The translations under genes were made by a program, and so were the position numbers. 64,000 nucleotides of DNA from an uncultured Bacteroidales bacterium (GTDB lineage: Bacteria > Bacteroidota > Bacteroidia > Bacteroidales > F082), in contig CAMZEK010000007.1 of NCBI GenBank assembly GCA_947305795.1, forward strand, positions 627-64,626. Direction: 5' to 3'. Shown here piece by piece: positions 6,574 to 63,859 of this stretch (position 1 is its first letter; each line of letters starts with the position of its first letter). Below the pieces are notes generated by a model. That model was not told where the DNA came from and did not search any database. It worked only from the letters and a program-made list of their open reading frames with translations.

Positions 6574-8831
6574 ACTTTCATTAAAGCCTTTGCCCTATCT
6601 TTTTGCGCCACAAACCACACCAAATCAGCGGGTTGGAACGTAATTCGCGCCGAAGGATTCAAGATGAATTGTCCGTCACGCTCGATGGCAATCACCATCG
6701 TCTCGTACTTGTCGGCCAAGCCGGAATCCATCAAGGCAACCCCGATGAAAGGACTATTGGGTTTCACTTCCACCTTATACATATCCACCTCGCTATCTTC
6801 ATGTTCCTGAATCAGTTGGTCGCTGAGCACCTCGATTCTCGGCAACAGCAACCGCAAATGATCCTCATGACCGACAAAGGTAATCTTATCATACGGAAAC
6901 AGTTGAAAATCAGACTTCGGCAACTCAAAAACATGCTGGCCGCGCTCCACGCGCACCACGCTCACGTTGTAATTGTCGCGAAAATCGGTTTCCTTGATAA
7001 GCTGACCGGAATAGACGCTGTCGGGGCTTAATGTCATCTTCTGGAGGTGACAGTTCTCTTGCAAAATCTCAGGGATAGTAAACACTTGCATCGACTGACG
7101 TTTGTTGAGGTTGTCCATGAAACGCTCCTCGATATGCTTGTAGAATTTCATGGCTGGACCCAAAACGCGCAGTAAAACAATGTAAATCAGAGCAAAACCG
7201 ATATTAATCCAATGGAATAGCGGCGAACTGATGTTCAGTCGTTCCCAGAACAATACGTTCAGGAAATGCTGTATCACGCTATAAGCAATAACGGCCACAA
7301 TCACGAAGCGCAAAACGAATACGAAACGTATCAGTGACTTGTTGAACCTGTTGACTTCCATCAACTTATGGGTTGTAGAGAGCAAAGTGTGCTTGAAGCC
7401 CATCGCCCAAAGGAAGGGCGAAACCAACACAAGAACCACCGCAGTGCTGATGGCTGGTCCCCAAGGCCGCGGCACATATTTCATGATGAACGAGCCGATG
7501 AAAAAACCGATGAGCACCACAGCAATGATGATGGCCAAATAAATGACAATATTCTTGAACTGCCGCGCGAGAAAACTCCCCATATTGACCTTCTTGCCAC
7601 TCTTCACTTTGATGCCTGAATCACTGTTTTCCAAACGGTTAATCCAACTTTTGGGAAAGTGTTGCGTCACCCAATGGTAACATGGCACAGCGGCTTTGAT
7701 GGCGTATGGCGTGAGAAAAGTGGTAATGATGGACACCGAAACGATGATGGGATACAAGAAATCATCAATAACACCATAACTCAAGCCGAGCGTGGCGATG
7801 ATGAACGAAAACTCCCCGATTTGGCTGAAACAGAAACCACCTTGCATGGCCTGTTTCAAGCCCAAACCAGCAATCAACCGACCAACGACATTGCTCAAAG
7901 GCTTGAAAATAAGCAATATAATTGTCACCACCAAAATCTGCCACCAATAATCGACTAAAATCTGCGGGTCAACCATCATACCCACCGACACAAAGAAAAT
8001 GGCACCAAACAAGTTTTTAATCGGTGTCGTGAGCTTATGAATCATCTCAGCCTCAAGGGTTTCCGCTAAGATAGAACCCATGATGAAGGCACCCAAAGCC
8101 GACGAAAACCCCGCCAAATTAGCCAGCACCACCATCATGAAGCACAAACCGACCGAAAAGACCGTCAGTGTTTCCTCCGACATGAACTTTCTTGCCCATT
8201 TCAGCACCGTTGGGACAATGAAAATGCCGCCGACGAACCACACCAAAAGGAAGAATCCAAGTTTCAACATACTGGAAACCAACTGCATACCATCGAAGGT
8301 CTTGCTTACCGCCAAGGTCGAGAGAATGACCATCAGCAGGACAGCCTCAAGATCTTCCACCACCAATTCGCCAATAACATTGCCGCTGAACTTCTCACGA
8401 TGCAACTTCATGTCGTCGAAGGCTTTGGCAATGATTGTCGTCGACGAAATTGAGAGCATGGCGCCGAGGAAAATACTGTCCATCTGTGTCCAGCCCAAAG
8501 CTTTGCCGAGCAGGAAACCGACCACACACATAGTGACCAATTCCGTGAGCGCAGTGATTCCGACCGTGCCGCCCACTTTTTTCAATTTCTTGAAACTGAA
8601 CTCCAAACCGATACCAAACAGCATGAACACCATGCCGATTTCGCTCCAAGTTTCTACACTCGTGTGGTCGCGGATGACGGGAAACCATTCAAAATTCGGC
8701 CCGATGAGGAAACCTGCAATAATGTAGCCCAACACAACGGGCTGCTTCAACCATTTGAAAATCACCGTGGTAATACCAGCTGTGACGAGTATTAAGGCAA
8801 GGTCGGAGAATAATGCGGGTAGGGATTCCAT
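6570..8831 (-). CDS. cation:proton antiporter (CPA2/Kef-type) with two C-terminal RCK_C (TrkA-C) domains
   Basis: 753 aa. N-terminal Na+/H+ exchanger TM core ('GYIIAGFLIGPNFEW', 'ALGAFIMGSILAET') and C-terminal TrkA-C-like repeats. Confidence 0.85.
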   Translation of the reverse strand: MESLPALFSDLALILVTAGITTVIFKWLKQPVVLGYIIAGFLIGPNFEWFPVIRDHTSVETWSEIGMVFMLFGIGLEFSFKKLKKVGGTVGITALTELVTMCVVGFLLGKALGWTQMDSIFLGAMLSISSTTIIAKAFDDMKLHREKFSGNVIGELVVEDLEAVLLMVILSTLAVSKTFDGMQLVSSMLKLGFFLLVWFVGGIFIVPTVLKWARKFMSEETLTVFSVGLCFMMVVLANLAGFSSALGAFIMGSILAETLEAEMIHKLTTPIKNLFGAIFFVSVGMMVDPQILVDYWWQILVVTIILLIFKPLSNVVGRLIAGLGLKQAMQGGFCFSQIGEFSFIIATLGLSYGVIDDFLYPIIVSVSIITTFLTPYAIKAAVPCYHWVTQHFPKSWINRLENSDSGIKVKSGKKVNMGSFLARQFKNIVIYLAIIIAVVLIGFFIGSFIMKYVPRPWGPAISTAVVLVLVSPFLWAMGFKHTLLSTTHKLMEVNRFNKSLIRFVFVLRFVIVAVIAYSVIQHFLNVLFWERLNISSPLFHWINIGFALIYIVLLRVLGPAMKFYKHIEERFMDNLNKRQSMQVFTIPEILQENCHLQKMTLSPDSVYSGQLIKETDFRDNYNVSVVRVERGQHVFELPKSDFQLFPYDKITFVGHEDHLRLLLPRIEVLSDQLIQEHEDSEVDMYKVEVKPNSPFIGVALMDSGLADKYETMVIAIERDGQFILNPSARITFQPADLVWFVAQKDRAKALMKV

Positions 8832-51531: not shown

Positions 51532-51930
51532 TCAATCACTTACCATCTTCTCAATAGTTTCGATCATCTGCCGTGCCGGTTCTATCTTTTCCTCTAATAT
51601 CTCGGAATCAGCATCAAAAGCGCAGTTATAATCACTCTCCTCACGCATGGTTTGGAGTTGGTTATACAATCTACCGTACTCGGCTGGCAAAATCCCAGTT
51701 TTAATATATTGCTGTCCAAACATGGCATGAGACCCATGATGGGTGTGAACTTGATGACCGTCATGTATCATTAATGCCGAAATTGCATGAAAAACAGCAT
51801 AATACAAGCGATTAGCCACCCCATTCCAAAGTTCAGCATTTTTTAATGCCTCGACCTCTTTAAAAGTACGCCTTGCACGTTCAATTTCAAGTTGAACGAT
51901 TGTCCTTCTCTCTTCGTCACTCAAACTCAT
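51532..51930 (-). CDS. HEPN domain protein (toxin-like partner of MNT)
   Basis: 132 aa, helical. 'RLYYAVFHAISALMIHDG' and 'LQTMREESDYN' are HEPN (PF05168-like) features. 4-nt overlap with the upstream NTase gene. Confidence 0.7.
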   Translation of the reverse strand: MSLSDEERRTIVQLEIERARRTFKEVEALKNAELWNGVANRLYYAVFHAISALMIHDGHQVHTHHGSHAMFGQQYIKTGILPAEYGRLYNQLQTMREESDYNCAFDADSEILEEKIEPARQMIETIEKMVSD

Positions 51931-52241
51931 ACCAAAACTATTTTATCCCGTTCAACATTCTTATAAAAAGGTAGAAAAGTCCAAGCGTTCCATTGTTGCC
52001 TTGAATAGACATGTGGGCTGATTTCGATGCCCAAATTCCAGCCCAGTTCCCGGAAAGGGTATGTAAGGTCGTAATCACTCGCTGTGATTTTCGACTTGTC
52101 AAGCAAAACCAGCAAATCCCAATCACTGTTCTCGTGATTGTCGCCACGCGCACGCGAACCATACAACCACAACGAACTCCCCGAAGGAAGAACTGCGAAT
52201 GCCAGTTGCCTAATCTTTTCAATAACTTGGTTGGTATCCAT
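51927..52241 (-). CDS. MNT-type nucleotidyltransferase
   Basis: 'LWLYGSRARGDNHENSDWDLLVLLD'. Track start 52247 is TTG; ATG 52241 (MDTNQVIEK...) is preferred. Confidence 0.8.
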   Translation of the reverse strand: MDTNQVIEKIRQLAFAVLPSGSSLWLYGSRARGDNHENSDWDLLVLLDKSKITASDYDLTYPFRELGWNLGIEISPHVYSRQQWNAWTFLPFYKNVERDKIVLV

Positions 52242-52264
52242 TGCCAAATGACCTTAATCCACCG

Positions 52265-52285: not shown

Positions 52286-55200
52286 TCACCGCAAATCAAA
52301 CTCCACAAAAGGCATTTTCTCAAAAAGCGGAAGGATGTTTTGGGCATTAATGCCTCCGTTTCGAGGAGTCATGTTGCACGATTTCTTGGTCTTCGAGTTG
52401 AAAAGATGCACCTTATAGTTCTGTTTTCCAGCGTTTTCCTTCACCGTTTTGATGAACATGTCCATCTCCGGCTTGTTCATCTCCGTGATGTCCAACTTAA
52501 TGTAAACCGTCTTTGTGGTGTTTTCGAGCAACGAATCCAGCAATTTCGCCTCCGTGAAACGCACATCAAGGGTAGACGGCATAATATTTGGGTCTTGGCC
52601 TGGCCTCGGGAAAGGTGCCTGCAAAGTCCCGTAGAGCATCACAAACTCATTGAGAACCAACAAGTTCTTGCAATTCAGGTAATTCTCCTTGAACAACGAG
52701 AACTGGAAGGCACCCGTTTGGTCTTCGATGGTGAAACTCCCGTAGGCGTTGCCGTTTTTGGAAATCCGTTCCTCCGCCCGCGTGATTTGTCCGCCAAGGC
52801 GAACGGCACGCCTGATATTGCGTTCAGGGTCGTTTTGGGCGGCCTTCAGTTGCTCGACGGTGCAGTTGGCGAAATACCTCAACGGCAGGTGATAAACCTC
52901 CATCGGATGGGCCGAAATGTAGAAGCCCAAAGCCTCCTTTTCCATCTCCAACTCCTTCATTTTCGACCACGGCTCGCAGTCGGGCAGCGGAATACTGAAG
53001 GTCTCCTCCACCCCACCCTGGTCGCCGAAGCCGAACAAATCCATCTGCGCCGAGTTCTTGCGCTCGTTGAACGAGGCCACCATGCGCATGGCTTTTTCGG
53101 AGAACGTAGCGGACTCGTTGGGCGCAATGTTGAATAACATGGCACGATGGAAGCCCTTGAAGCTGTCGAAGCAACCCGCCATGCCCATGCTCTCCAAAGC
53201 CCTGACATTGAGTCCCTTGTCGGCGATACGCATCACAAAGTCACCGAAGTCCTTGAACTTGCCGTTGGCTTCGCGTTCGGCCACGATGCCAGCCACTGCT
53301 GCCTCGCCCACGTTCTTGATGCCACCCATGCCATAGCGGATTTCGCCCTTCTCGTTGACCGAAAACTCGTATTGCGATTCGTTCACGTCGGGACCTAACA
53401 CCGCTATTTTCATGCGTTTACATTCCTCCGTCATGAAGTTCACCTGCTTGATGTCGCCCAATTCGTTATTCAAAACAGCCGCCATGAACTCAGCGGGATA
53501 GTGTGCCTTGAGGTAGGCCGTCTGGTACGAAACCCACGAATAGCAGGCTGCGTGCGACTTGTTGAAGGCGTATGAAGCGAATTTTTTCCACTCTTCCCAA
53601 ATCTTTTCAAGACGTTTTTTAACCTCGGCCTCGGGCAAGTTTTCGGTTTGGGTCAGCTTGGCCACACCTTGTTTCATGAACTTTTCGTAAAGCTCCTCCA
53701 TCTTAGCCAACTGCTTCTTACCCATGGCCTTACGCAGCGTGTCGGACTCACCTCTTGTGAAATCAGCCAGCTCACGCGAAAGCAACATCACCTGCTCCTG
53801 ATAGACACAAATGCCGTAGGTGTCCTTCAGGTACTTCTCCATGCAGTCGAAATCATACTTGATTTCTTGCCGACCTTGCTTGCGGGCGATGAAGTCGGGA
53901 ATGTTGTCCATCGGGCCAGGACGATAGAGCGCGTTCATGGCGATGATGTCACCAATGACGGAAGGCTGCAACTCACGCAGGTATTTCTGCATTCCGGGCG
54001 ATTCAAACTGGAACGTGCCGATAGTGTTGCCTGAACAATACAAGTCGTAGGTCAGTTTGTCGTCAATCGGGATATGGTCGATGTCAATATCGATGCCACG
54101 GGTGCGCTTGATGTTCTTCAGCGTGTCCTTGATCAAGGTCAAAGTCTTCAGGCCAAGAAAGTCCATCTTGATGAGGCCGACAGTCTCAATGACGTGGCCA
54201 TCGTATTGAGTCACAACAACATCCTCTTTTGTGTCCTTGTCCTTGACGGTACACACGGGCGCGACATTGGTCAGGTCGTCGGCACCAATGATGACACCGC
54301 AAGCATGAATGCCAATTTGACGGTTGGTGTCCTCCAGCTCCTCAGCGTAGGTCAGCATCGAGGAAATGTTTTCATCCTTGCCCGTCAGCAACTCATGCAG
54401 TTCGGGAATGTATTTGTAGCAATTCTTCAGGTTGACCTTGGGCATCTTTTTGGGCAACGTGCCTTCCACGGCCTTTACCGCCGCCTCGTCGAAATTGCGG
54501 TCAGGGATATAGCTCTTGATTTTGTTCACCTCGGGCAACGGCACCTTCTGCACACGCCCCACATCGGCAATGGCCGACTTGGCCGCCATCGTGCCGTAAG
54601 TGATAATGTGCGCGACTTTCTCTTTTCCGTATTTCCTTGTCACCCAGTCCAACACGCGCTCGCGACCGTCATCATCGAAATCCACGTCGATATCGGGCAG
54701 GGAAATACGGTCAGGATTGAGGAAACGCTCAAACAGCAAGTCGTATTTCAGCGGGTCTAAGTCAGTAATTTTCAAGCAGTAAGCCACCACTGAACCAGCC
54801 GCCGATCCACGTCCTGGCCCCACCGAAACACCCAACTCCTCACGCGCCGCCCTGATATAGTCGCTCACGATGAGGAAGTAGCCAGGGAAGCCCATCGTCT
54901 TCATCACGTGCAACTCGAACTTGATGCGCTCGATTTGCTCTTCCGTCAGGTCTTTACCATAACGCTCATGGGCACCGTCCCAAGTCAATTTGGCCAAATA
55001 ATCCGCTTCGAGCTTGATACGGTAAAGCCGCTTGTAGCCGCCCAATTTCTTGACCTTCTTCTCGGCCTCCTCCTGCGACAAGACCACGTTGCCGTGTTCG
55101 TCGCGGGTGAACTCGTTGAACAGGTCCTCCTCGGTATATTTCTGTCGGTATTCCGCCTCGGTGCCGAAGTCCTCTGGAATGGGAAAAATCGGCATAATCG

Positions 55201-56899
55201 GGTCGGAATCAATGCTATAAGTCTCGACTTTATCAACAATCTCCTGCGTATTTTCCAAGGCGAAAGGCACATCGGAGAAGATTCGGCCCATCTCCTCGGG
55301 CGTCTTCAGCCATTCCTGCTTGGTGTAATGCATCCGCGTTGGGTCGTCCAAGTCCTTGCCCGTGCTAAGGCAGATGAGACGGTCGTGCGCCTCGCCGTGT
55401 TCTTCTTCCACAAAGTGCACGTCGTTGGTCGCGATGACCTTCACATCGTATTTCTTCGCCAACTCCAAGAGGATTTTGTTCACCTCCTTCTGGCGTTCGT
55501 AAACCTCGGTGTCACCGCCAGGCTTGTCGGTCTTATGTCGCTGGATTTCAAGATAATAATCCTCACCAAAAAGATTCTTGAACCATTGTATCGATTCCTC
55601 CGCGCCCTTGAGGTCACCGTTCATGATTTTTTGCGGCACCTCGCCCGCCAAGCAAGCCGAGCTGCAAATCACGCCCTCGTGATACTGCTCCAAAAGGCTG
55701 TGGTCGATGCGGGGATTATAGTAAAAGCCTTCCGTGTAGGCGATGGAACTCAACTTGCATAGGCTGTGGTAGCCAGCCTTGTTCTTCGCCAATAAAATAA
55801 GGTGCCAACCACGATCCTGACGACCGTCGCGTTTGTCAATGCTGATGGGCGCACAATAAGTTTCCATGCCAAAAATCGGCTTGAAAAACTGTCCGTTCAA
55901 TTGGTCAATTTCCGCTTGGGCGGCGGCTTTTTCCTCATCGGTGGCCTCCACCTTATTTAATATGGCTTTCTGTGCCTTGATGGCATCCTTCACCTTCGTG
56001 TTCTCTTTGTTCACCGTGTCAGCGAAGTCCTTGATACCAAACATATTACCATGGTCAGTGAGGGCGAGGCTATACATGCCGTATTTCTTGCATTTTTCCA
56101 CCAAGTCGGGTACCTTCGACATGCCATCGAGCATGGAATAATGCGAGTGGACGTGCAGGTGCGTGAAGTGCTTCGGGACATAGTTGCCGATTTCAGGCAC
56201 CTCTTCTCCCTCTTCTTCGTCAACGATAGGCTCAAAAGTAATTCCAGCGGGCTGAATCATCTCAGGATTGGCCGCCTTGAACTCCTCGATGAACTGCGCG
56301 TCAACGCCCAAGTCGTTGGCATCCAACACGCCACGACGCACCAATTCGAGGAACACGCGTGCTGTGGCCTCCACGTCGGCAGCGGCATTGTGCGCCAAAT
56401 CGAACTTCTCGCCAAACAAGATTTGGTGGAACTCCTCTAAACGTGGCAACTTGAACTTGCCGCCCTTGCCGCCAGGCAGTTGGCAAAACTCGGCTGTTTT
56501 TTCGGTGCAAGTGTCTACTTTCTGCCAATTGGGTAGCGGATTCTCGCCTTTCTTGCGCATGAACTCGCAGCCAAGAATACAGAGGTCGAAGTCGATATTA
56601 TGCCCCACAAAGCGCGTGGCTTTCGAAGCCGACTGCAGGAAAATATCAAGCACCTCGGCTAACGGCTTGCCGTGCTCGGAGGCATATTTAGTGGAGATAT
56701 GATGCACCATCTTGGCATCGATAGGAATCTCAAAACCCTCAGGCTGAACGATATAGTTGTGCGCCTCCACGAAGCGACCCTTGTCGTCATGAATTTGCCA
56801 AGCCAGTTGCACCATGCGTGGCCAGTTGTCGAAGTCGGTCAGCGGCGCGTTGTAGTTTTTGGGAAGACCTGTGGTCTCGGTATCGAAGACTAGAAACAT
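52286..56899 (-). CDS. dnaE: DNA polymerase III alpha subunit (DnaE) with N-terminal DEDDh 3'-5' exonuclease (DnaQ-like) domain
   Basis: 1537 aa. Residues 1-190 carry ExoI 'VFDTETTGL', ExoII 'GHNIDFDLCIL' and ExoIII 'HNAAADVEA'. The PHP domain starts at 'THLHVHSHYSMLDG' (about aa 245), followed by a canonical DnaE body ('GFPGYFLIV', 'GPGRGSAAGS', 'LPDIDVDF'). Confidence 0.9.
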   Translation of the reverse strand: MFLVFDTETTGLPKNYNAPLTDFDNWPRMVQLAWQIHDDKGRFVEAHNYIVQPEGFEIPIDAKMVHHISTKYASEHGKPLAEVLDIFLQSASKATRFVGHNIDFDLCILGCEFMRKKGENPLPNWQKVDTCTEKTAEFCQLPGGKGGKFKLPRLEEFHQILFGEKFDLAHNAAADVEATARVFLELVRRGVLDANDLGVDAQFIEEFKAANPEMIQPAGITFEPIVDEEEGEEVPEIGNYVPKHFTHLHVHSHYSMLDGMSKVPDLVEKCKKYGMYSLALTDHGNMFGIKDFADTVNKENTKVKDAIKAQKAILNKVEATDEEKAAAQAEIDQLNGQFFKPIFGMETYCAPISIDKRDGRQDRGWHLILLAKNKAGYHSLCKLSSIAYTEGFYYNPRIDHSLLEQYHEGVICSSACLAGEVPQKIMNGDLKGAEESIQWFKNLFGEDYYLEIQRHKTDKPGGDTEVYERQKEVNKILLELAKKYDVKVIATNDVHFVEEEHGEAHDRLICLSTGKDLDDPTRMHYTKQEWLKTPEEMGRIFSDVPFALENTQEIVDKVETYSIDSDPIMPIFPIPEDFGTEAEYRQKYTEEDLFNEFTRDEHGNVVLSQEEAEKKVKKLGGYKRLYRIKLEADYLAKLTWDGAHERYGKDLTEEQIERIKFELHVMKTMGFPGYFLIVSDYIRAAREELGVSVGPGRGSAAGSVVAYCLKITDLDPLKYDLLFERFLNPDRISLPDIDVDFDDDGRERVLDWVTRKYGKEKVAHIITYGTMAAKSAIADVGRVQKVPLPEVNKIKSYIPDRNFDEAAVKAVEGTLPKKMPKVNLKNCYKYIPELHELLTGKDENISSMLTYAEELEDTNRQIGIHACGVIIGADDLTNVAPVCTVKDKDTKEDVVVTQYDGHVIETVGLIKMDFLGLKTLTLIKDTLKNIKRTRGIDIDIDHIPIDDKLTYDLYCSGNTIGTFQFESPGMQKYLRELQPSVIGDIIAMNALYRPGPMDNIPDFIARKQGRQEIKYDFDCMEKYLKDTYGICVYQEQVMLLSRELADFTRGESDTLRKAMGKKQLAKMEELYEKFMKQGVAKLTQTENLPEAEVKKRLEKIWEEWKKFASYAFNKSHAACYSWVSYQTAYLKAHYPAEFMAAVLNNELGDIKQVNFMTEECKRMKIAVLGPDVNESQYEFSVNEKGEIRYGMGGIKNVGEAAVAGIVAEREANGKFKDFGDFVMRIADKGLNVRALESMGMAGCFDSFKGFHRAMLFNIAPNESATFSEKAMRMVASFNERKNSAQMDLFGFGDQGGVEETFSIPLPDCEPWSKMKELEMEKEALGFYISAHPMEVYHLPLRYFANCTVEQLKAAQNDPERNIRRAVRLGGQITRAEERISKNGNAYGSFTIEDQTGAFQFSLFKENYLNCKNLLVLNEFVMLYGTLQAPFPRPGQDPNIMPSTLDVRFTEAKLLDSLLENTTKTVYIKLDITEMNKPEMDMFIKTVKENAGKQNYKVHLFNSKTKKSCNMTPRNGGINAQNILPLFEKMPFVEFDLR

Positions 56900-56936
56900 A
56901 ATCAGTTGAGAGTTGATAGTTTAGAGTTGAAAGTTG
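56900..56936 (-). promoter_or_regulatory. five perfectly phased AACTNNN heptads abutting the dnaE start codon
   Basis: The minus strand reads AACTTTC AACTCTA AACTATC AACTCTC AACTGAT T ATG. On the plus strand AGTT occurs at 56904, 56911, 56918, 56925 and 56932. Confidence 0.5.
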
Positions 56937-56965
56937 AGGCAAAATCCACCTCAAAAATCAGCCTT

Positions 56966-56973
56966 CAAAGATA
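56966..56973 (-). promoter_or_regulatory. Bacteroidota -7 promoter box (TAnnTTTG)
   Basis: Minus-strand TATCTTTG about 66 nt upstream of dnaE ATG 56899. Confidence 0.45.
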
Positions 56974-57006
56974 CGTGATTTTGGGAAACGGTGCAAGATG
57001 CTTGGA

Positions 57007-57510
57007 CTATTTCTTTTTGAAATTATTCCACATCTGTTTCACCATGCCAGCGATTTCTTCCCAAAACCAAACTGGTTCCAGCACTTCCATAGCATCACCA
57101 TTTTTTCTGTGGATTGAGTTGGCATATTGCGTCAGCTCATTACGAAGTTCAGGTTGCAAAGAAGTGTAATGAATACAGGCCACAAGCCAATCGAGAATCA
57201 CTTGACGATAGGCTTTGCCTTTGTATTCGATGCGCGAGAGGGCTTCAGTACGTTGGTCATTGAGGGTTAAACTAATCCGATTGTGCCCATGTTCAACGGC
57301 CATACTTCTGCCCTGATTGTCGACAATCATTAAGCTGGGACTTACTTGAGCGGTTTCACAATCAAAAGAGAATGGCCTTTTCTGCCGTATCACTTCATTG
57401 ACGAAGGCATACATGAAGACACGACCCATGCCATGCTCATCCTCGTGACTTAGCAGACGGGCGATAGTTGTAGTGTTGAATGTTTTCGATGCTATCGTTT
57501 TCATTTTCAT
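57007..57510 (-). CDS. hypothetical protein, third gene of the FtsZ-like operon
   Basis: 167-aa ORF with an ATG start and a 4-nt overlap with the upstream gene. I recognise no motif. It has a basic amphipathic C-terminus 'WFWEEIAGMVKQMWNNFKKK'. Confidence 0.45.
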   Translation of the reverse strand: MKMKTIASKTFNTTTIARLLSHEDEHGMGRVFMYAFVNEVIRQKRPFSFDCETAQVSPSLMIVDNQGRSMAVEHGHNRISLTLNDQRTEALSRIEYKGKAYRQVILDWLVACIHYTSLQPELRNELTQYANSIHRKNGDAMEVLEPVWFWEEIAGMVKQMWNNFKKK

Positions 57511-58199
57511 TTCCTTTTAAGCCTTTTGAAAAACGCTCTTATTCTTGAGGTTCTCTTTGTCGTTTGTTGTGGCTCTGGCAGGGCACGGATTAGGCATTTT
57601 GCTACTTCCGCCAACAAGTCATCGGCCTTTGTGAAGGCTTGGTTTATGGGCAAGTCGCAGTATTGTGTTTTGATGTACTGGTTGTTGAGCAGGAAGAGAG
57701 CATCCGTGTTTCTTGCCAAGTTTTGAATTCCTTCCGAGGCTTGCGAGAATCTGCGTTCGCCTTCCAATTCGAATGGCAAAGTGGCAAGGGCAATGGTCGT
57801 GATGCCCATCTTTTTTGACTCACGGGCGATTACGGGAGCAGCACCCGTGCCGCATCCACCTCCAAGACAGGTGACAACAAAGGTCATAGAAGGTTTGTCG
57901 TCGAATAGTTTCTTTATTGCATCTGTGTTTTCTTCAGTCGCGATGCGTGCTTTTTCGGGGCTATTGCCGCTTCCAAGTCCGTCTGTGCCGAGTTGTAGGG
58001 TCGTGGTGGCGACTGATTTCTCGAGTACTTTGGTATCCATGTCGCAGGCTACAAAGGAGAAACCTTCCAAATTGCTTTGGCTTATATGGTTGACGATATT
58101 GTTGCCGCCACAGCCAACGCCGATTACTTTAACGGTTGGCTTTATCGTTGAGGTTGCTTTTTTGTTCATAGTCGTTGTATTGTTATGAGATTTCAACAT
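57507..58199 (-). CDS. FtsZ/tubulin-superfamily GTPase-domain-only protein
   Basis: 230 aa. 'KVIGVGCGGNNIVNHI', 'GLGSGNSPEKARIATEE', 'CLGGGCGTGAAPVIA', 'TLPFELEGERR' and 'DALFLLNN' are colinear with E. coli FtsZ residues ~10-200. It ends after helix H7 with the basic tail 'RTSRIRAFFKRLKRK'. An alternative start is ATG 58169. Confidence 0.7.
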   Translation of the reverse strand: MLKSHNNTTTMNKKATSTIKPTVKVIGVGCGGNNIVNHISQSNLEGFSFVACDMDTKVLEKSVATTTLQLGTDGLGSGNSPEKARIATEENTDAIKKLFDDKPSMTFVVTCLGGGCGTGAAPVIARESKKMGITTIALATLPFELEGERRFSQASEGIQNLARNTDALFLLNNQYIKTQYCDLPINQAFTKADDLLAEVAKCLIRALPEPQQTTKRTSRIRAFFKRLKRK

Positions 58200-58851
58200 T
58201 CAGTTCGATATTGAAGTCGCGCACCCAAAGGAGGTCGAAAATGGCGAATTCCATGTGCTCGAAAAGGTCGTGGAATGCGAATATAAGATGCATGTCTTTT
58301 GTCAGTTTTCCGTCTAAACCCTCGTTCCAATTGTCCGTTTCTTCACTCAAATATAGCATTTGATGTTCGGATTCTATTGTTGGGACGGGGGAATGATAGG
58401 TGTCAATTCGGAATTGTCCGAATCCGTTATGGTACAAAGGAATAAAGTCATCGATTGTTCCATTCAGTATGTCCCACATCCGTTTGGCGCGTTCGTCTTG
58501 AATGGGATGCAAAGGAGGATAGTCGTAGCCGAAATAGCATTTGCCCTCCACTTCGATGGTTCCTGGCAATTCTGCTTTGGCCACCGACTCATAAAGTGCT
58601 ATAGTGCGTTTGCGCATCTCTATCATCTGTTGCTTCATGGCCTCGTTGAAGTCCTTGAGCAGTTGCAAATAATAGTCGTCCATCACGAACATTTCGTTTA
58701 AGATGGTTTTCCTGATGCTCAAAAGGTTTTGGATGGTTACTCTTCCTGTTTCCATGCCCCACATGCCTTTCTCGCTCTGTCGCTGGCAGTCGAGAATCAT
58801 GTACTCCACCTTCCTGACCGGCTGTGAGTTGTAGATTTCTTGTATGGTCAT
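58183..58851 (-). CDS. hypothetical protein, first gene of the FtsZ-like operon
   Basis: 222-aa ORF with an ATG start. Its stop overlaps the FtsZ-like start by 17 nt. I recognise no motif. Confidence 0.45.
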   Translation of the reverse strand: MTIQEIYNSQPVRKVEYMILDCQRQSEKGMWGMETGRVTIQNLLSIRKTILNEMFVMDDYYLQLLKDFNEAMKQQMIEMRKRTIALYESVAKAELPGTIEVEGKCYFGYDYPPLHPIQDERAKRMWDILNGTIDDFIPLYHNGFGQFRIDTYHSPVPTIESEHQMLYLSEETDNWNEGLDGKLTKDMHLIFAFHDLFEHMEFAIFDLLWVRDFNIELNVEIS

Positions 58852-58869
58852 AGTGCGTTACGATTTAAC

Positions 58870-58915
58870 GATGCAAAGAAAAAGAAAGCCTGTGCCGAAT
58901 TGAAGCACAGGCTTG
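58870..58915 (-). repeat. 46-nt hairpin / T-tract / near -7 box cassette, copy 1
   Basis: The minus strand reads CAAGCCTGTGC-TTCAATTCG-GCACAGGCTT TCTTTTTCTTTGCATC. It lies 22 nt after the HAD gene stop and about 18 nt before ATG 58851. Confidence 0.85.
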
Positions 58916-58936
58916 ACGACAAATGAAAAATTGTCC

Positions 58937-59482
58937 CTAACGGTTCAAAATGTTTATGGCTTCATAGGCCTTTTGGATGGTTAATCCATCGTTTTCATCG
59001 GTTTGAACCAAATGTCCCTGCTGACTATGGAAGAAGATGTTTTCATCGTCGAGAATGACATATTGGAATGGCGGTGTTGCACATTTATGCAACCATGCCT
59101 GGATCTCGAGCGCTTTAGCATTGCGTTCCGGGACGGACAACATTTCGCCGCTTTTAGCATCTTTGTATGTAGTGCTCAGAAGGATTGGTGTCATTGAAAA
59201 CAACTCATCAGGAAGGTTGCGGTCTTTCCATAACGCCTGCATTTTTATCCAGCCTTCGTTTCGCCAAGTGGAGGAAAGAACGATTTTACAGCCAGTATGA
59301 TCAACAATGTATTTAAGATTGCTTATAGTTTTGGGGTCGAACATGGCACCGAACTCATCATAATGGTCGATGCCTTCTTCTCTGAGCAGTTTGGCATAAC
59401 TGGTAGTGTTCAACACGCCATCAAAATCGAGAAAGAGGTACGTTAATTCTTTCTTTTTTAGATAATCTTTAAGCATACTCAT
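58937..59482 (-). CDS. HAD-superfamily phosphatase, stand-alone 'Swiss Army Knife RNA-repair' type HAD domain
   Basis: Motif I 'LFLDFDGVLN', motif II 'IVLSSTWR', motif IV 'YVILDDE'. 181 aa with no cap-domain insert that I can see. Confidence 0.6.
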   Translation of the reverse strand: MSMLKDYLKKKELTYLFLDFDGVLNTTSYAKLLREEGIDHYDEFGAMFDPKTISNLKYIVDHTGCKIVLSSTWRNEGWIKMQALWKDRNLPDELFSMTPILLSTTYKDAKSGEMLSVPERNAKALEIQAWLHKCATPPFQYVILDDENIFFHSQQGHLVQTDENDGLTIQKAYEAINILNR

Positions 59483-59504
59483 AATAAAAGCTAATATGTT
59501 GCGA

Positions 59505-59550
59505 GATGCAAAGAAAAAGAAAGCCTGTGCGGAATTGAAGCACAGGCTTG
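59505..59550 (-). repeat. 46-nt hairpin / T-tract / near -7 box cassette, copy 2
   Basis: Identical to copy 1 at 45 of 46 positions; the only difference is in the loop. It lies after the PD-(D/E)xK gene stop and about 22 nt before ATG 59482. Confidence 0.85.
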
Positions 59551-59581
59551 GGGAAATGTGTGTATAGTTGGCTAAAAAAAA

Positions 59582-60796
59582 CTAATTGTCATTATCTTTG
59601 ACAATGGCAATAGTTTCTTCGAAATGTTGATACACTTCATCAAACTGTTCAATATCAAAACTTTTATACATTTCTTTGCGGTCATTGCTGTGCGGCAGAT
59701 GCTCTTGCTGATTAAGGTCGTCATGATGAGGCTTTTTAAGCCTCTCTACTGTTGAACCAATAAGTTCTCTGTCTTGAACGGGCAGATTAAAGTCAAAATA
59801 GAAACCACTATAAAACTGTGCCCCATCGCAACCGATAGAAACGACAGCTCGTTTCCCTCGTATTCCATCTATGTTATCGAACGTTACATCCGTTATTACC
59901 CACCCTTTTCCACTACCCTCACTAACTTTATTAGGCTCCAGTTTAGAGTATTTTTCTGCTGTTTTCTTTTTCCATGTTTCGTAAATGTTTTTGCGATAAT
60001 CCTCAATCATTTTATTCATTTGTTGAGAAACCTCATTAATACTATCGCTTTTTTCTCGCAAAAAAGAAATACATTCCTTATCGCTTTTTTCTGATAAGTC
60101 AAATTGCTTAATGATTAACTTTTGTAATTCTTTGTTCATTGGTTCGTCTATGTTTCTTATTTTGAATAATCCTTCGAGGTAATCAATATATTGAATGATA
60201 GCTGACTGTAGAAACTGTTCTTTGCACTCAATACACGGCATAACTTTGTCTTTCAGCCATGGTAAAATGTCATAGCAATAGGACAAATTTACATATCTTG
60301 AACGAAAGCTGTCTTTATATTCGCCCCATGATTGCGGCTCTGGCTCTTTGGGGTATTGGGAAAGATAGACGACAAAAATCTGGTTTTTGTTATAGTCATG
60401 CTTTAAGGTTTTCCCAATGTAGTTACTCAATTGAGCCTCTCTATCATCTGCATTATAGATTTTGTTCTCAAAAATAATGGCATAATTCTTATCCATTACC
60501 CATAAATCAATGCGTTCTTTCTCTTGTGTGATTTTTGGAGATTCAATAGTGATTTTGCCGAAATCTCCTGAAAGCCTTTCTTTAATTAGGTCTATTAAAG
60601 AAGTCAAAAAAACATATTTGCCATTTTCGTTTGTATAGGATAATAAATGCATCAAAATCCGGCTGTGAGCGTTTTCGTTGATGTGCAACTGGTCCACCAA
60701 ATTTAAATGAAAGGGTAACTTTTTCTGTTCTTCTTCTTTGATTTTTGAAAACTCAGATGCGAAATTCCATAAGTCTGATAATTGTTGTTCATTCAT
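59582..60796 (-). CDS. PD-(D/E)xK nuclease family protein (PDDEXK_4-like)
   Basis: 404 aa. N-terminal 'ENAHSRILMHLLSY' followed by 'RIDLWVMDKNYAIIFENKIY' (D...ExK core). The gene is AT-rich. Confidence 0.6.
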   Translation of the reverse strand: MNEQQLSDLWNFASEFSKIKEEEQKKLPFHLNLVDQLHINENAHSRILMHLLSYTNENGKYVFLTSLIDLIKERLSGDFGKITIESPKITQEKERIDLWVMDKNYAIIFENKIYNADDREAQLSNYIGKTLKHDYNKNQIFVVYLSQYPKEPEPQSWGEYKDSFRSRYVNLSYCYDILPWLKDKVMPCIECKEQFLQSAIIQYIDYLEGLFKIRNIDEPMNKELQKLIIKQFDLSEKSDKECISFLREKSDSINEVSQQMNKMIEDYRKNIYETWKKKTAEKYSKLEPNKVSEGSGKGWVITDVTFDNIDGIRGKRAVVSIGCDGAQFYSGFYFDFNLPVQDRELIGSTVERLKKPHHDDLNQQEHLPHSNDRKEMYKSFDIEQFDEVYQHFEETIAIVKDNDN

Positions 60797-60834
60797 ATTT
60801 AATTGTTGCTACTTTATTGTTGATATTCTGAAGA

Positions 60835-61248
60835 TTAATTCATCTTATTCCATTGGTGATACCCGCCCGAAGGGCAGTCAAATGCATTGGGCGACTTTGA
60901 GGCATACAACAGAAGGCCACATTTTTTGCATTGATAGACATCGGTGCCTATCGGACATAAATCTTGCCAATTATGGTAGCCTCCAGCAGTGCATCCAAAA
61001 GAAGATGGGGTGTTCTTGCTTTCAACGAGAAGACCGCATTTCTTGCATCGGTAGTTTTCGCAACCGACTTCGCCGAGGTCGTTCCAATCGTGGTAGTTTC
61101 CAGCCCGACAATTGAACGCATTGGGCTGTCGCTCTGTTTTAATCAGAATGCCACATTTCTTGCATTGATAGTTTTTCATAGGCGGCCAGGTTGGGTTTTG
61201 CATTTGTAAGCATAAAGCCAGTATGATATTTGCAGCAAAGGTAATCAT
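60835..61248 (-). CDS. protein with three tandem CCCH zinc-ribbon-like repeats
   Basis: 137 aa. Three ~39-aa units 'Y[QR]CKKCG[IL]L...P..F.C..G.YH.W' (C-x2-C-x14-C-x5-H). Hydrophobic N-terminus 'MITFAANIILALCLQ'. Alternative starts at M16 and M24. Confidence 0.5.
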   Translation of the reverse strand: MITFAANIILALCLQMQNPTWPPMKNYQCKKCGILIKTERQPNAFNCRAGNYHDWNDLGEVGCENYRCKKCGLLVESKNTPSSFGCTAGGYHNWQDLCPIGTDVYQCKKCGLLLYASKSPNAFDCPSGGYHQWNKMN

Positions 61249-61285
61249 TTCTATGAAACAAACGGGATTTTGAAAAAAACTGCGA

Positions 61286-61957
61286 TTACTTGACTATCCA
61301 GTATTCCCTCAAAAGTCTTTCAAACTTCTGTTTCCCGTTTCCGTTTCGATGATTCCACGAAAAGTGAACGGCAGGGTGATTGACGAAATCAATCGGAATA
61401 TCATAAGACAATCCATTCAAGCCCATGTACTTCATAAATTCCGAGTGTGCATATTTGCTGACGAATATGACTACATCAGGTTGGTCGAGTTCAATGATTC
61501 CACATAATGCGCTGCCTGCCACATCACGGTCCAATTGGGAGCAATCTTTTTTGAATGATCTATTGTTTTTCCTCACCGTGGCTGGACGCAGAAAATAATT
61601 ATAGAACATGGCCTCCTCATAGACATGCTCACAAAGTGTTTCTTTCAACACTTCATTCATGGATTTACACAATCTATCAAAAGTCTTATATCCTTTGTAG
61701 TTGCTTACATCTTCCTTTTTTACTTCTGGTATCAAATGTTGTTTGTCCGCACCCTTATACCACGCCTGTGGGTCTTTAAACACACTATCGACACCATCGT
61801 CAAAATAGTTGCTTTCTCCAACTATCAACAGTTTTTTATGTTTGGTGCTGTTCCAATAATTCTCCAAAGAAGCAGGAACGAGTTCGGTGAATCTCACGAA
61901 GATGCCTTCCTTGACAATCTGGTCTTTTCCGATGTTTACATACTTATTGTTTTCCAT
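61286..61957 (-). CDS. hypothetical protein with uracil-DNA glycosylase superfamily-like motif order
   Basis: 223 aa. 'KLLIVGESNYF' (cf. family-4 motif A GEAPG), 'FYNYFLRPA' (cf. N-x4-RP), 'QPDVVIFVSKYA' (cf. P-x-[IV]-[IV]-x-LG-x-x-A) and 'VNHPAVHF' (cf. motif B HPS/HPA). This is motif-order similarity only. Confidence 0.4.
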   Translation of the reverse strand: MENNKYVNIGKDQIVKEGIFVRFTELVPASLENYWNSTKHKKLLIVGESNYFDDGVDSVFKDPQAWYKGADKQHLIPEVKKEDVSNYKGYKTFDRLCKSMNEVLKETLCEHVYEEAMFYNYFLRPATVRKNNRSFKKDCSQLDRDVAGSALCGIIELDQPDVVIFVSKYAHSEFMKYMGLNGLSYDIPIDFVNHPAVHFSWNHRNGNGKQKFERLLREYWIVK

Positions 61958-62028
61958 ATTTTATTGATTTTATTGTATTTAGAGTTTGTTTTTCGTTTGT
62001 TTATTTATGTCAACTCGATCGTTTTTTC

Positions 62029-62073
62029 GCTGCAAAGAAAAAGCAAGCTTGTGCAGAATCGCAGCACAGGCTG
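62029..62073 (-). repeat. hairpin / T-tract / near -7 box cassette, diverged copy 3
   Basis: The minus strand reads CAGCCTGTGC-TGCGATTCT-GCACAAGCTT GCTTTTTCTTTGCAGC, about 72 nt upstream of ATG 61957. No minus-strand gene ends upstream of it. Confidence 0.7.
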
Positions 62074-62115
62074 TAATAAAACTTCAAAAAATGCTACGAT
62101 TCGTTTTTTTATTTC

Positions 62116-62123
62116 TACTTTTG
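62116..62123 (+). promoter_or_regulatory. Bacteroidota -7 promoter box (TAnnTTTG)
   Basis: TACTTTTG about 23 nt upstream of ATG 62147. Confidence 0.5.
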
Positions 62124-62146
62124 CAACCGAACAAAATACCTCCAAA

Positions 62147-62467
62147 ATGGAATACGAAGAAAACAACAATCCCGTCAGCATGGCTTCAGAACCTTCCGCC
62201 GCGTTGTATTATGGCTCAAGTACCAAACTCAGGGAAAGCGGCATCATCCCACAATTGTCTCACCTTGACAAGTCGGACACAATTTGGATTATCCGTTTTT
62301 TGCAACTGCAATTGGAACAGATGAGAGCAAAAGAGAACAATCTTCAAGAACAAGACATCGACCCGATGTTTGGGCTGGATTTCCTGAAAAGCATCCACAA
62401 AGACGTGCCCGATTTTGAGCAACTGAGAACTGAACATTTCCTTGACAAATATGGCATTGTATTATGA
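62147..62467 (+). CDS. putative antitoxin partner of the PIN toxin
   Basis: 106 aa starting at MEYEENNNP. ATGA overlap with the PIN gene. The track ORF (from 61625) is over-extended antisense into the neighbouring gene. I recognise no DNA-binding motif. Confidence 0.45.
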   Translation: MEYEENNNPVSMASEPSAALYYGSSTKLRESGIIPQLSHLDKSDTIWIIRFLQLQLEQMRAKENNLQEQDIDPMFGLDFLKSIHKDVPDFEQLRTEHFLDKYGIVL

Positions 62468-62910
62468 AGGTATTTCTCGACACCAATATTTTTGTTGAAT
62501 ACATTTATGAAAGAGAGCAATTTGCATCTGTTCAACGCATATTCAAAGCCATAAAGAACAAACAAATTGATGGAATCACTTCACACGCCACGTTTTACAC
62601 TTTGGCATATCTCTCCGACCAGATGTTAAAACACAAAGGAATCCATCGTCCAGAATTGACTGAACAAACCCGTGGAATTGTTCGTAGTATGCTTCAACTT
62701 GTTCCTGTTGGAAACATGGATTACGCTGACATGATTACAGGAGTTGATGACACTACATTTTCTGACATTGAGGACAGTTTTCAATACCAATGTGCCTTGC
62801 GAAACCGATGCGATTATCTAGTCACCATCAACATCAAAGATTTCCCAAATGTGCCACAAACATTGATGGAAATATTGACACCAAACGATTTCGTCGCGAA
62901 AGTCCTTTAA
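62464..62910 (+). CDS. PIN domain ribonuclease (VapC-like toxin)
   Basis: 'MKVFLDTNIFVEYI' (first acidic residue), 'DIEDSFQYQCA' and 'DYLVTINIKDF'. 148 aa. Confidence 0.8.
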   Translation: MKVFLDTNIFVEYIYEREQFASVQRIFKAIKNKQIDGITSHATFYTLAYLSDQMLKHKGIHRPELTEQTRGIVRSMLQLVPVGNMDYADMITGVDDTTFSDIEDSFQYQCALRNRCDYLVTINIKDFPNVPQTLMEILTPNDFVAKVL

Positions 62911-62968
62911 CTATAACCCAACACCCATCACTTCTTTTTTCAGCCAAAACCGCAAACCAGAACAGGCT

Positions 62969-63859
62969 TCACCCCTCCTCCTCCGGCTCCACATGAATAG
63001 AAATGTGCGTCTCCTCGCCGTAGCGTTCTTTCAGCAGGTGTTCCACCTCGGAGGCTTTATCGTGGGCTTCCTTCAGCGGGATGTCGCCGTCCATGAGGAT
63101 GTGCATCTCGATGGCGTAATGGTTGCCGATGCGTCGGGTGCAGAGATCGTGTGGCTCACTGACCCCCTGCACGCACTTCACGATGTCCAGAATCTCGTTC
63201 TCCACCTCCTCCGGCAACGACTGTTCCATCAGCTCGCCCATGCCGTTCTTGAGCAAGTCGATGGCCACCTTGACGATGAGTGCACCCACAGCGATGGAGG
63301 CAATCGGGTCGAGAACGGCCCAACGCTCACCCAACAGGATGGCACCGCCGATGCCGATGGCCGTCCCGACTGACGACAAAGCATCGCTGCGATGGTGCCA
63401 AGCGTTGGCCTTCATCGCCTGCGAGTCCAACTGTTCAGCTTTGCGTTTGGTGTATTGGAAAGTCAACTCTTTCAGCAAGATAGAAACCAAAGCCGCCACA
63501 AGTGCCAGTATCCCTGGCTGGGTCAAATTGCCGCCCTTGGCCCAAAAAGCAATCTTCTTGGCCCCATCGACGAAGATGCCCACGGCGACCGCAAACAGCG
63601 CGATGCCAATGAGGGTGGTCGCCAGGGTCTCGAACTTGCCGTGACCATAGTCGTGCGACTTGTCCTTGGGTTTGTGGCTGATGCGCACGAAAGCCAAGAC
63701 GATGATGTCAGTGACAAAATCCGACACCGAATGCACCGCGTCGGCAATCATGGCGGAACTGTGGCCGATGATGCCCGCCACAAACTTGAACACCACCAGC
63801 ACCACATTGACCGCGCTACCCCAAAGGGTCACTTTATAAACTTCTTTTTCCCTATCCAT
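62969..63859 (-). CDS. cation diffusion facilitator family transporter
   Basis: 296 aa. 'SSAMIADAVHSVSDFVTD', 'HDYGHGKFE' and 'NAWHHRSDALSS' are CDF signatures. It has a cytoplasmic C-terminal domain. Confidence 0.9.
   Translation of the reverse strand: MDREKEVYKVTLWGSAVNVVLVVFKFVAGIIGHSSAMIADAVHSVSDFVTDIIVLAFVRISHKPKDKSHDYGHGKFETLATTLIGIALFAVAVGIFVDGAKKIAFWAKGGNLTQPGILALVAALVSILLKELTFQYTKRKAEQLDSQAMKANAWHHRSDALSSVGTAIGIGGAILLGERWAVLDPIASIAVGALIVKVAIDLLKNGMGELMEQSLPEEVENEILDIVKCVQGVSEPHDLCTRRIGNHYAIEMHILMDGDIPLKEAHDKASEVEHLLKERYGEETHISIHVEPEEEG

Follow-up and report, generated by a model that had tools for sequence, protein, structure and literature searches.

Two kinds of locus stand among the closest described counterparts of the one considered here. 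In defence islands and hotspots, low-G+C cargo lies between housekeeping genes, a relative may have the site empty while others carry different cargo, and nucleases, toxin-antitoxin pairs and catalogued defence genes are clustered without an integrase. Sedentary chromosomal integrons, and the integrase-less attC clusters known as CALINs, store anti-phage cassettes (bioRxiv 10.1101/2024.07.02.601686). A stretch of 64,000 nt from an uncultured Bacteroidales bacterium (positions 627 to 64,626 of contig CAMZEK010000007.1, assembly GCA_947305795.1; hereafter the window) has traits of both. At about 57000-62960, between the stop codon of a CDF cation-efflux gene and the promoter of dnaE, it holds nine genes, A to I, and three copies of a short hairpin element (Table 1), and we put at roughly 72% the probability that this interval is accessory cargo and one instance of a family of unidirectional cassette arrays. 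Judged from the sequences available, the family appears to be confined to a single rumen genus within the Bacteroidales, known from uncultured members (records titled Ca. Limimorpha sp. or bacterium F082, and RUG metagenome-assembled genomes, MAGs), and the insert is then a truncated member of this genus-specific, integrase-less family, organised by the hairpin element. The genome to which it belongs is itself a MAG (2.56 Mb in 88 contigs, 80% completeness).

Of the island traits named above, low-G+C cargo between housekeeping genes, a site that is empty or differently filled in relatives, and the lack of an integrase recur between dnaE and the CDF gene; a nuclease and a putative toxin-antitoxin pair lie there too, while catalogued defence genes are represented in the window by E alone, as a candidate, and otherwise by sister arrays. 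What sets the interval apart from the usual defence island is that it is a unidirectional array, that its units are split by a genus-specific 48-nt element, and that the same block of genes is found at several chromosomal sites. The likeness to integrons and CALINs lies in small, co-oriented cassettes that each end in a hairpin repeat, in variation of their order and content, in compact defence genes that include uracil-DNA glycosylase (UDG)-like proteins, and in a divergent gene at the array head. Unlike integrons and CALINs, the arrays examined have no IntI nearby, their repeat combines a perfect stem with a U-tract and a promoter-like box, crossovers do not appear to fall at a fixed point, and the cassettes appear to carry their own expression signals. 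An attC site has R and L boxes (R''-L''...L'-R', GTTRRRY), an imperfect stem and extrahelical bases, none of which is seen in the element on inspection. The kinds of locus that stand behind the array, the defence hotspot and the integron-like array, are known, and we expect it to be moderately surprising to a specialist.

The element emerged from a repeat search of the window as a direct repeat of 48-70 nt, present at three places, where it bounds units of the insert; the statement in the preliminary description that no direct-repeat boundary is visible was therefore mistaken. Read on the minus strand, it consists of a hairpin, AAGCCTGTGC-N9-GCACAGGCTT, then a T-tract, then CTTTGC; the form that follows each cassette, about 48 nt long, has the hairpin core TGTGC-N9-GCACA, a T-tract and CTTTGCAGCG. 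Its copies sit 20-65 nt ahead of the start codons of C, D and G, so that the window reads as element, G-F-E; element, D; element, C-B-A', with the divergent pair H-I at the array head. By inspection, the element has a perfect stem of 10-11 bp with a loop of 7-9 nt and a U-tract after it, folding at -17 to -18 kcal/mol outside the weaker head copy, and the hairpin of copy 1 was called an intrinsic terminator by a scan tool. A 23-nt core pattern matches the window three times and matched none of 100 shuffles of it, and the 2.56-Mb assembly yields no further copy when up to two mismatches are allowed.

Beyond this genome, the element is found in 42 of 121 genomes of the genus (20 of the 58 of high quality), with 1-11 clustered copies in each; the reversed pattern, taken as a control, gave a single match in all of these genomes together. 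Of the 27 copies in five relatives, 24 are gathered in a single locus of about 10 kb and share one orientation. A scan of 185,579 species genomes returned 67 stretches, every one from a rumen Bacteroidales MAG (records of the RUG series, Ca. Limimorpha sp. and bacterium F082) except for one in Chryseobacterium, which is probably a chance match. Viral contigs gave no match, on which ground a phage origin of the element was rejected, and Rfam held no family at E <= 1, so that a known RNA family was rejected as well.

An nhmmer profile of the element places 178 unique copies ahead of at least 35 gene families. Those that can be annotated include UzuA (2e-72), PDC-S23 (RhuM+Fic; 5e-142), an IetA-like AAA ATPase (1e-31), GmrSD, a PLD nuclease, PDDEXK_4 and a WYL+WCX regulator, along with bpMoxR, YgjP-like peptidases, an FtsK-like ATPase, DUF6140 and a family (cl19) with a weak UDG match. 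By these family assignments, the cargo that follows the element is of the defence-island type. A short DNA pattern by itself finds arrays rich in apparent defence genes in about one-third of the species of an uncultured rumen genus, and every gene that follows the element becomes, by association, a candidate conflict gene; the candidates that carry no annotation include C, family cl25, DUF6140, the G-F pair and the truncated FtsZ, B, with A.

The same profile also picks up two diverged copies on another contig of this genome (C31:3577-3628 and 7430-7485), of the form GCCTGTACC-N7-GGAACAGG followed by a T-tract and TTTGCAGCG. They precede unrelated ORFs (open reading frames) of 819 and 514 aa in another low-G+C patch. 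Two more ORFs of this patch, of 387 and 253 aa, appear on reading of the sequences to have, respectively, a Fic-type active-site motif and a CxxxCxxC motif of radical-SAM-like kind.

The dnaE-CDF interval is accessory, and comparison across relatives supports the view, taken already in the preliminary description, that the site is a true hotspot with variable cargo. In one relative (G090), 167 nt separate the CDF gene (94% identity) from dnaE and contain only the conserved dnaE promoter; this empty site rules out the reading of the interval as a core operon. Two others (G053, G068) have an EamA-like gene and a gene for a 377-aa lipoprotein, then dnaE, with no cargo upstream of dnaE. Elsewhere the site is filled differently. 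In G042 it holds a PIN pair whose members share 76% and 72% identity with I and H, then roughly 3 kb of ORFs of low G+C and, immediately ahead of dnaE, a HAD gene like D (74%); in G121 a RayT-like gene is accompanied by one copy of the element, a cl25 gene and a UzuA-like gene (32% G+C); and G015 has an element copy and a RayT-like gene about 3.6 kb upstream of dnaE. G024, which has both flanks in common with this genome (the CDF gene 88% and the gene beyond it 90% identical), shows a 24-kb interval that ends in a diverged array, and G011 too has other cargo at the dnaE site. In most relatives dnaE and the CDF gene are far apart or on separate contigs. The dnaE-proximal edge of the insert falls, in the alignments, about 10 nt upstream of a conserved CTTGCACC...TATCTTTGAA promoter block; a motif CTTGC(A/G)CC...TATCTTTGAA is common to the dnaE promoters of four relatives (G090, G024, G011, G014), and similarity stops just upstream of it.

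No tRNA gene lies within 9 kb of the island. An integrative and conjugative element, a conjugative transposon and a prophage remnant were all ruled out, since the larger conserved neighbourhood in relatives consists of ordinary genes: GH20, PsuG/PsuK, carbonic anhydrase, amidohydrolase and UvrA-paralogue genes were read from the sequences, and a LexA-like gene was confirmed by search. No tra, mob or phage structural genes appeared, and matches to PHROG families were limited to phrog_1818 (D) and a weak match of B to PhuZ.

Base composition sets the insert apart from its surroundings. The genome averages 49.0% G+C (standard deviation 4.1 among 1-kb windows); the island stands at 40.7%, the 1.2nd percentile of 2101 windows of 5.9 kb, and the 1-kb windows across 59000-62999 are in the lowest 0.4-3.1% of the genome. 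Measured against the 1407 long ORFs of the genome, the nine island genes lie between the 0.4th and 17th percentiles in G+C and between the 1st and 33rd in G+C at third codon positions, and the flanks lie at the 67th (dnaE, 51.9%) and the 97th (CDF gene, 56.8%). Gene by gene, the G+C contents are 43.7% (A), 46.9% (B), 44.8% (C), 41.9% (D), 34.7% (E), 44.9% (F), 39.6% (G), 43.3% (H) and 38.5% (I), with E, I and G the poorest. The composition break that had been suspected is thus real on proper windowed analysis. The accompanying idea of a compositional mosaic fares less well, since no island gene reaches the 48-53% that had been given for the FtsZ-like operon, the HAD gene and the zinc-ribbon gene; those values came from hand counts of single 60-nt lines and were too high as a result, and the whole insert is G+C-poor.

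Gene order bears on the history of the insert. With A to I concatenated as the query, we searched 120 genomes of the genus and then examined the retrieved loci by tblastn. At least 12 other species have the order G-F-[variable slot]-C-B-A, in their case elsewhere on the chromosome. One such site has PsuK/PsuG on one side and carbonic anhydrase, amidohydrolase and UvrA-paralogue genes on the other; a second is beside a LexA-like gene and dinB. In block-bearing species, identity to the window is 95-98% for C, 92-96% for D, 91-95% for F, 86-91% for B, 83-87% for G and 67-80% for A (residues 1-136); DnaE identity is 86-88% in five block-bearing genomes, so that the divergence of the block is similar. 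The slot between F and C holds, depending on the genome, E (68%), a 537-aa E-like nuclease (35%), the UDG-like cl19, a paralogue of G, D, or an oppositely oriented PDDEXK_4 gene. F is always directly downstream of G in relatives, and C is missing in four genomes that retain B-A. The D cassette lies between the slot gene and C here and in G068, and upstream of G in G116 and G049, while H-I is found at the array head in G102 with 84-85% identity.

The recurrence of one order at other sites in at least 12 species indicates that most of the insert is a single pre-assembled block, and the units that look swappable would be E, D and H-I only. The preliminary description had instead proposed several independent acquisitions stacked at one place. 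In its fullest form this would mean that each gene or pair came from a separate donor to a dnaE-CDF hotspot and that the differences in composition record those origins, a history that would account for the spread in G+C from 34.7% (E) to 46.9% (B) and for the independent variation of E, D and H-I between genomes, and that the hotspot character of the site would favour. We nevertheless consider it improbable: G-F, C-B-A and their relative order are found at other loci of at least 12 species, a block that moves as a whole would bring the same G+C differences along, and a common inter-cassette element points to exchange within one array family and not to unrelated donors.

Table 1. Features of the array and its flanks, in window coordinates
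Feature	Position	Strand	Product or type	Remarks
dnaE	52286..56899	-	1537 aa, N-terminal exonuclease fusion	conserved flank, low-coordinate side of insert
dnaE promoter and leader	56900..57006	-		dnaE-proximal insert edge at about 57000 (alignments with relatives)
A (A')	57007..57510	-	167 aa, chimeric ORF	weak partial PDC-S26 and PDDEXK_4 matches
B	57507..58199	-	230 aa, Tubulin/FtsZ GTPase domain	E = 5.7e-30
C	58183..58851	-	222 aa	no family match; opens C-B-A' unit
Element copy 1	58861..58930	-	inter-cassette hairpin, -17.9 kcal/mol	21 nt ahead of C start codon
D	58937..59482	-	181 aa, stand-alone HAD_SAK_2 phosphatase	6.8e-26; phrog_1818
Element copy 2	59496..59565	-	inter-cassette hairpin, -16.7 kcal/mol	
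E	59582..60796	-	404 aa, PDDEXK_4	6e-19; PADLOC PDC-S26 1.1e-31; variable slot
F	60835..61248	-	137 aa	three 117-nt repeats encoding zinc ribbons
G	61286..61957	-	223 aa, UDG-superfamily fold (predicted)	no sequence family; opens G-F-E unit
Element copy 3 (head copy)	62020..62089	-	inter-cassette hairpin, weaker, -9.9 kcal/mol	in G/H divergent spacer
H	62147..62467	+	106 aa, putative antitoxin	no family match; 4-nt overlap with I
I	62464..62910	+	148 aa, PIN_3, putative toxin	3.2e-13
CDF cation-efflux gene	62969..63859	-	Cation_efflux	9e-48; conserved flank, high-coordinate side

The dnaE-proximal end of the array has been shortened. Residues 1-136 of A' belong to the A family, which is always downstream of B in relatives, and residues 137-167, the last 31 codons, correspond to the C-terminus of a 302-aa helix-turn-helix (HTH)-WYL-WCX regulator, of which this remnant is all that the window retains. 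In relatives the two parts are in separate genes (families cl0 and cl6), 1-3.7 kb apart, and the regulator in their arrays is intact (WYL 2e-13, WCX 1e-11). Alignment with these relatives puts an in-frame junction at ...AGAAAAAA/TGGTGATGC... and reveals there no common stretch of the kind that an assembly mis-join needs. The remnant is of the divergent type present at the dnaE site of G011 and G024 (67-68% identity). By these alignments, gene A is a deletion chimera fused to the tail of a WYL gene, and the in-frame fusion, together with the site-specific type of the remnant, argues for a real deletion in a resident array. A second contig of this genome (C30:28230-32346) ends inside a WYL gene that is 96% identical to the array copies of relatives, with a DnaQ-like exonuclease gene (97% identical) 2.8 kb away; it may represent a second array, incompletely assembled and missing its upstream part.

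The same observations bear on whether the locus is an artefact of assembly or binning, in which contig C7 would wrongly connect the dnaE and CDF flanks with an array that belongs at another place or to another strain. The fragmented and incomplete state of the MAG would allow this, as would the end of C30 inside a second array-type WYL gene and the tendency of close relatives' contigs to break just upstream of dnaE (L049, L050). We regard such a mis-join as highly improbable, because both junctions are continuous, the fusion of A' to the WYL tail is in frame with no common stretch at the junction, the remnant is of the type expected of a resident at this site, and G042 has the same layout at the same site, with the PIN pair distal and the HAD gene proximal.

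An integron-like organisation is evidently possible without an integron integrase, which raises the question of the route by which cassettes are exchanged. In the mechanism we favour for the cassette-array family, a cassette would be a gene or short operon with its own short 5' leader, then the element of about 48 nt. The element could act as an intrinsic terminator for the preceding cassette and as a promoter for the following one, with the consequence that each unit would be transcriptionally insulated. The Bacteroidetes -7 consensus is TAnnTTTG; TTTCTTTG, downstream of the hairpin, is close to this box and differs from it only at the second position, and the leaders that follow the element are 15-45 nt long. 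At the same time the conserved element would provide short tracts of homology. Through these, homologous recombination or gene conversion, from array to array and from strain to strain, could exchange, duplicate and remove cassettes, with ordinary deletions in addition. When the D cassettes of two different slots are aligned, nucleotide similarity extends from after CTTTGCA to just past the 3' hairpin. The subtype of the T-tract is not tied to the family downstream (13 versus 9 copies ahead of C, 3 versus 8 ahead of cl25), which suggests that crossovers occur at differing points within the element. A fixed crossover point was rejected on this evidence, and the variation favours homologous recombination or gene conversion over a precise, site-specific cut.

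Several observations weigh against this picture. The putative -7 box has T in place of the consensus A, and no -33 box is evident. The outer stem positions are often mismatched without compensation (for example 16 C-T and 19 C-A pairs, compared with 5 and 2 double changes), while the inner TGTGC/GCACA is nearly invariant, a pattern that suits a palindrome bound by a protein no less than it suits a terminator. Upstream of the head copy there is no co-directional gene to terminate, and a 45-nt homology tract is short for RecA-dependent exchange. The G-F and F-E junctions (61248-61286 and 60796-60835; 37-38 nt) have no element, though the gene after F varies between genomes; some cassette turnover must take place at repeat-less junctions. 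As for the cargo, E is the only window gene that matches PADLOC, and PDC-S26 is itself an unvalidated candidate; no function is assignable to C, F, H or A, and we infer the anti-phage function of the window genes from family, fold and context. Finally, the 80% completeness of the MAG and the position of the WYL gene at the very end of C30 limit our view of the genome's array complement.

The nearly invariant half-sites within an outer stem that mismatches freely lead to a possibility that we hold tentatively, namely that the palindrome is chiefly an operator, at which an HTH-WYL-WCX regulator encoded by the array, of the BrxR/CapW type, represses the array until an infection signal is received. 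In one defence island BrxR binds, at two promoters, inverted repeats of 10-11 bp whose spacer is 5 bp long, which provides a precedent for such repeats at several promoters of an island (PMC9122601). As in BrxR/CapW islands, an HTH-WYL-WCX regulator is a standard member of the arrays of relatives, and the inverted repeat lies before several units, including the regulator gene itself (ten unique copies are directly upstream of the WYL gene). Confinement of the element to arrays would also be expected of an operator, as would a palindrome centred about 33 nt ahead of the inferred transcription start and a head copy where nothing needs terminating. The fit to BrxR is imperfect: the spacer here is 9 bp and not 5 bp, the hairpin with its U-tract is a textbook terminator, and the window's own WYL gene is destroyed down to its 31-codon remnant, though C30 has a copy 96% identical to those of relatives. 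An operator and the terminator-promoter element of our preferred mechanism are not exclusive, and the two could coexist. The arrays also lend themselves to the study of expression signals that act across a whole island, possibly under a single WYL regulator.

The recombination route can also be approached through the enzymes that might act on the element. An integron was rejected, because there is no IntI and there are no attC features: tyrosine recombinases (PF00589) were not found within about 80 kb of the arrays of five relatives, the two matches in this genome are both on other contigs, and inspection for attC traits (no formal attC model was run) revealed no paired R boxes flanking the element. 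The preliminary description noted that the island has no mobility genes. That is correct for the window, but in at least 11 relatives a RayT-like gene, a candidate HUH gene, stands at the head of the equivalent array. This gene, F34 (346 aa), has an HUH-like motif, DHHHIVLQV, and a tyrosine motif, NYVYANPER; it matches the NCBIfam family REP_Tyr_transpos at 3.8e-6, and homologues are named RayT by JGI. In at least 11 genomes its start codon is 137-157 nt from the head element, and it points away from the cassettes. Pairs of F34 and element are at differing chromosomal sites, the dnaE site of G121 and G015 among them.

These findings could be read as signs of an analogue of the integron, in which a divergent RayT-like HUH (Y1) nuclease would recognise the folded, single-stranded hairpin and excise or insert cassettes; the layout matches that of intI, attI and cassettes, and the window would hold an orphan array, one that has lost its enzyme or received the PIN pair in its place. 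In keeping with this, the head copy in the window carries the same AAAAAGCAAGC variant as copies beside F34 in relatives, and H has a promoter, TACTTTTG, in the same position as that of F34. If true, such a system would be a previously undescribed, integrase-independent cassette platform, a convergent analogue of the integron in Bacteroidales that stores anti-phage genes.

We think this unlikely. At 26.8 bits, F34 falls well short of the cut-off of 80 set for the family, and there is no Pfam Y1_Tnp match; F34 occurs in only about 16 of 42 element-bearing genomes sampled, with several copies frameshifted or fragmentary; no RayT-like gene is present in the window, the genome having only a 37%-identical F34 paralogue on another contig; and crossover points are not fixed. 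F34 genes have, moreover, a different palindrome of their own in the leader, GCGGGAATGGAATTCCCGC, and homologues in Bacteroidaceae (72-75% identity) are beside other repeats and housekeeping genes such as dnaB, which suggests a conserved, domesticated gene. One of these Bacteroidaceae homologues is preceded by three repeats of the GCGGAT-N3-ATCCGC type and stands beside a Schlafen-like helicase gene and dnaB. These leader observations come from L123:10496-10610, L042:7735-7870 and L128:8640-9000.

REPs (repetitive extragenic palindromes) occur in many copies scattered over a genome, and those on either side of rayT are inverted relative to each other. The arrays resemble such REPtrons in having short hairpin repeats beside a RayT-like, candidate HUH gene in at least 11 relatives, and differ from them in that the 1-11 copies per genome are all within arrays and in direct orientation, and in the weakness of the similarity to RayT.

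We return to the cassette-array reading and its cargo. The genes as first listed (FtsZ-like operon, HAD phosphatase, PDDEXK_4-like nuclease, triple zinc-ribbon protein and PIN pair) were correctly recognised in the nine ORFs, and the family matches of B, D, E and I agree with the list. Profile searches, including PADLOC, support the proposal of defence-type cargo, with E matching the candidate PDC-S26 and with UzuA, GmrSD, PDC-S23, IetA-like and WYL genes in sister arrays; the Brig-type, UDG-like fold of G and the PIN pair H-I point the same way. The match of E to PDC-S26 is full-length (residues 17-369 on positions 21-361 of the 413-position model PDLC04983), and the PIN pair combines the PIN_3 domain of I with an overlapping upstream partner. 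We suspect that E would act as a PDC-S26-type nuclease and that G, with its zinc-ribbon partner F, could excise modified bases in the manner of Brig. Further anti-phage or conflict genes may be D, as a HAD phosphatase, B, as a truncated FtsZ acting with A and C, and the PIN toxin-antitoxin pair.

The assignment of G as a UDG-superfamily-like protein holds at the level of fold. A sequence search against solved structures found nothing, so that a fold search was needed. The predicted structure (pLDDT 92.5, from 34 homologues) had UDG-superfamily glycosylases as 50 of its 50 top PDB matches in Foldseek (SMUG1, family-4 UDG, TDG, UdgX and MUG; probability 0.99-1.0, TM-scores 0.39-0.54), and G probably has the UDG-superfamily fold. 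E48, S49 and H194 are invariant among the 34 homologues and N50 is nearly so; motif A reads GESNY in place of GEAPG or GxNPG, and motif B is HPA where the consensus is HPS. Defence by UDG-like proteins against phages that carry modified bases has been demonstrated, and such proteins are also encoded in integron cassettes (PMC11078745; bioRxiv 10.1101/2025.10.29.685425). G is like Brig1 and Brig2 (described in those reports) in its predicted UDG fold, its diverged pocket motif, the lack of a sequence family and an A+T-rich, defence-type context; it is set apart by TM-scores to solved UDGs of only 0.40-0.51 and by being always accompanied by the triple zinc-ribbon protein F.

B is 40-48% identical to the GTPase domains of true FtsZ proteins and covers positions 5-212 of the 353 in TIGR00065, with a score of 176.6 against a cut-off of 295.2. 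It ends after helix H7 with a basic C-terminal tail, and so has neither the T7 loop nor the C-terminal domain of FtsZ; a few other proteins of 228-254 aa share this build. A further difference from FtsZ is that the gene for B belongs to a defence-type array, where it accompanies A and usually C. We speculate that a subunit with a GTP pocket and no T7 loop might cap FtsZ filaments, or might serve as a decoy for phage inhibitors of FtsZ. C, its usual partner, has many homologues. Its model, of moderate quality (pLDDT 66.8), has no counterpart in Foldseek at E <= 0.001, and when solved structures were searched by profile, only chance-level matches came back.

Some minor observations concern dnaE itself. 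In the genus, 18 genomes have orthologous ORFs of 1531-1581 aa. Several other families of the order have a shorter dnaE, of about 1160-1220 aa, and a separate ORF of about 190 aa that matches residues 1-193. The dnaE leader in the window (56900-56940) contains phased 7-nt repeats, AACTNNN, and relatives have repeat arrays in the same place with other units (CTTACTT in G011; AACTCTA in G014 and G090). Just downstream of dnaE, at 51532-52247, are two small ORFs that are present in G022 (80% and 45% identity) and not in G014. One of them has a GSRARGD...DWDLLVL motif and, read from the sequence, resembles a minimal nucleotidyltransferase, and the two may constitute another variable pair of toxin-antitoxin type on the other side of dnaE.

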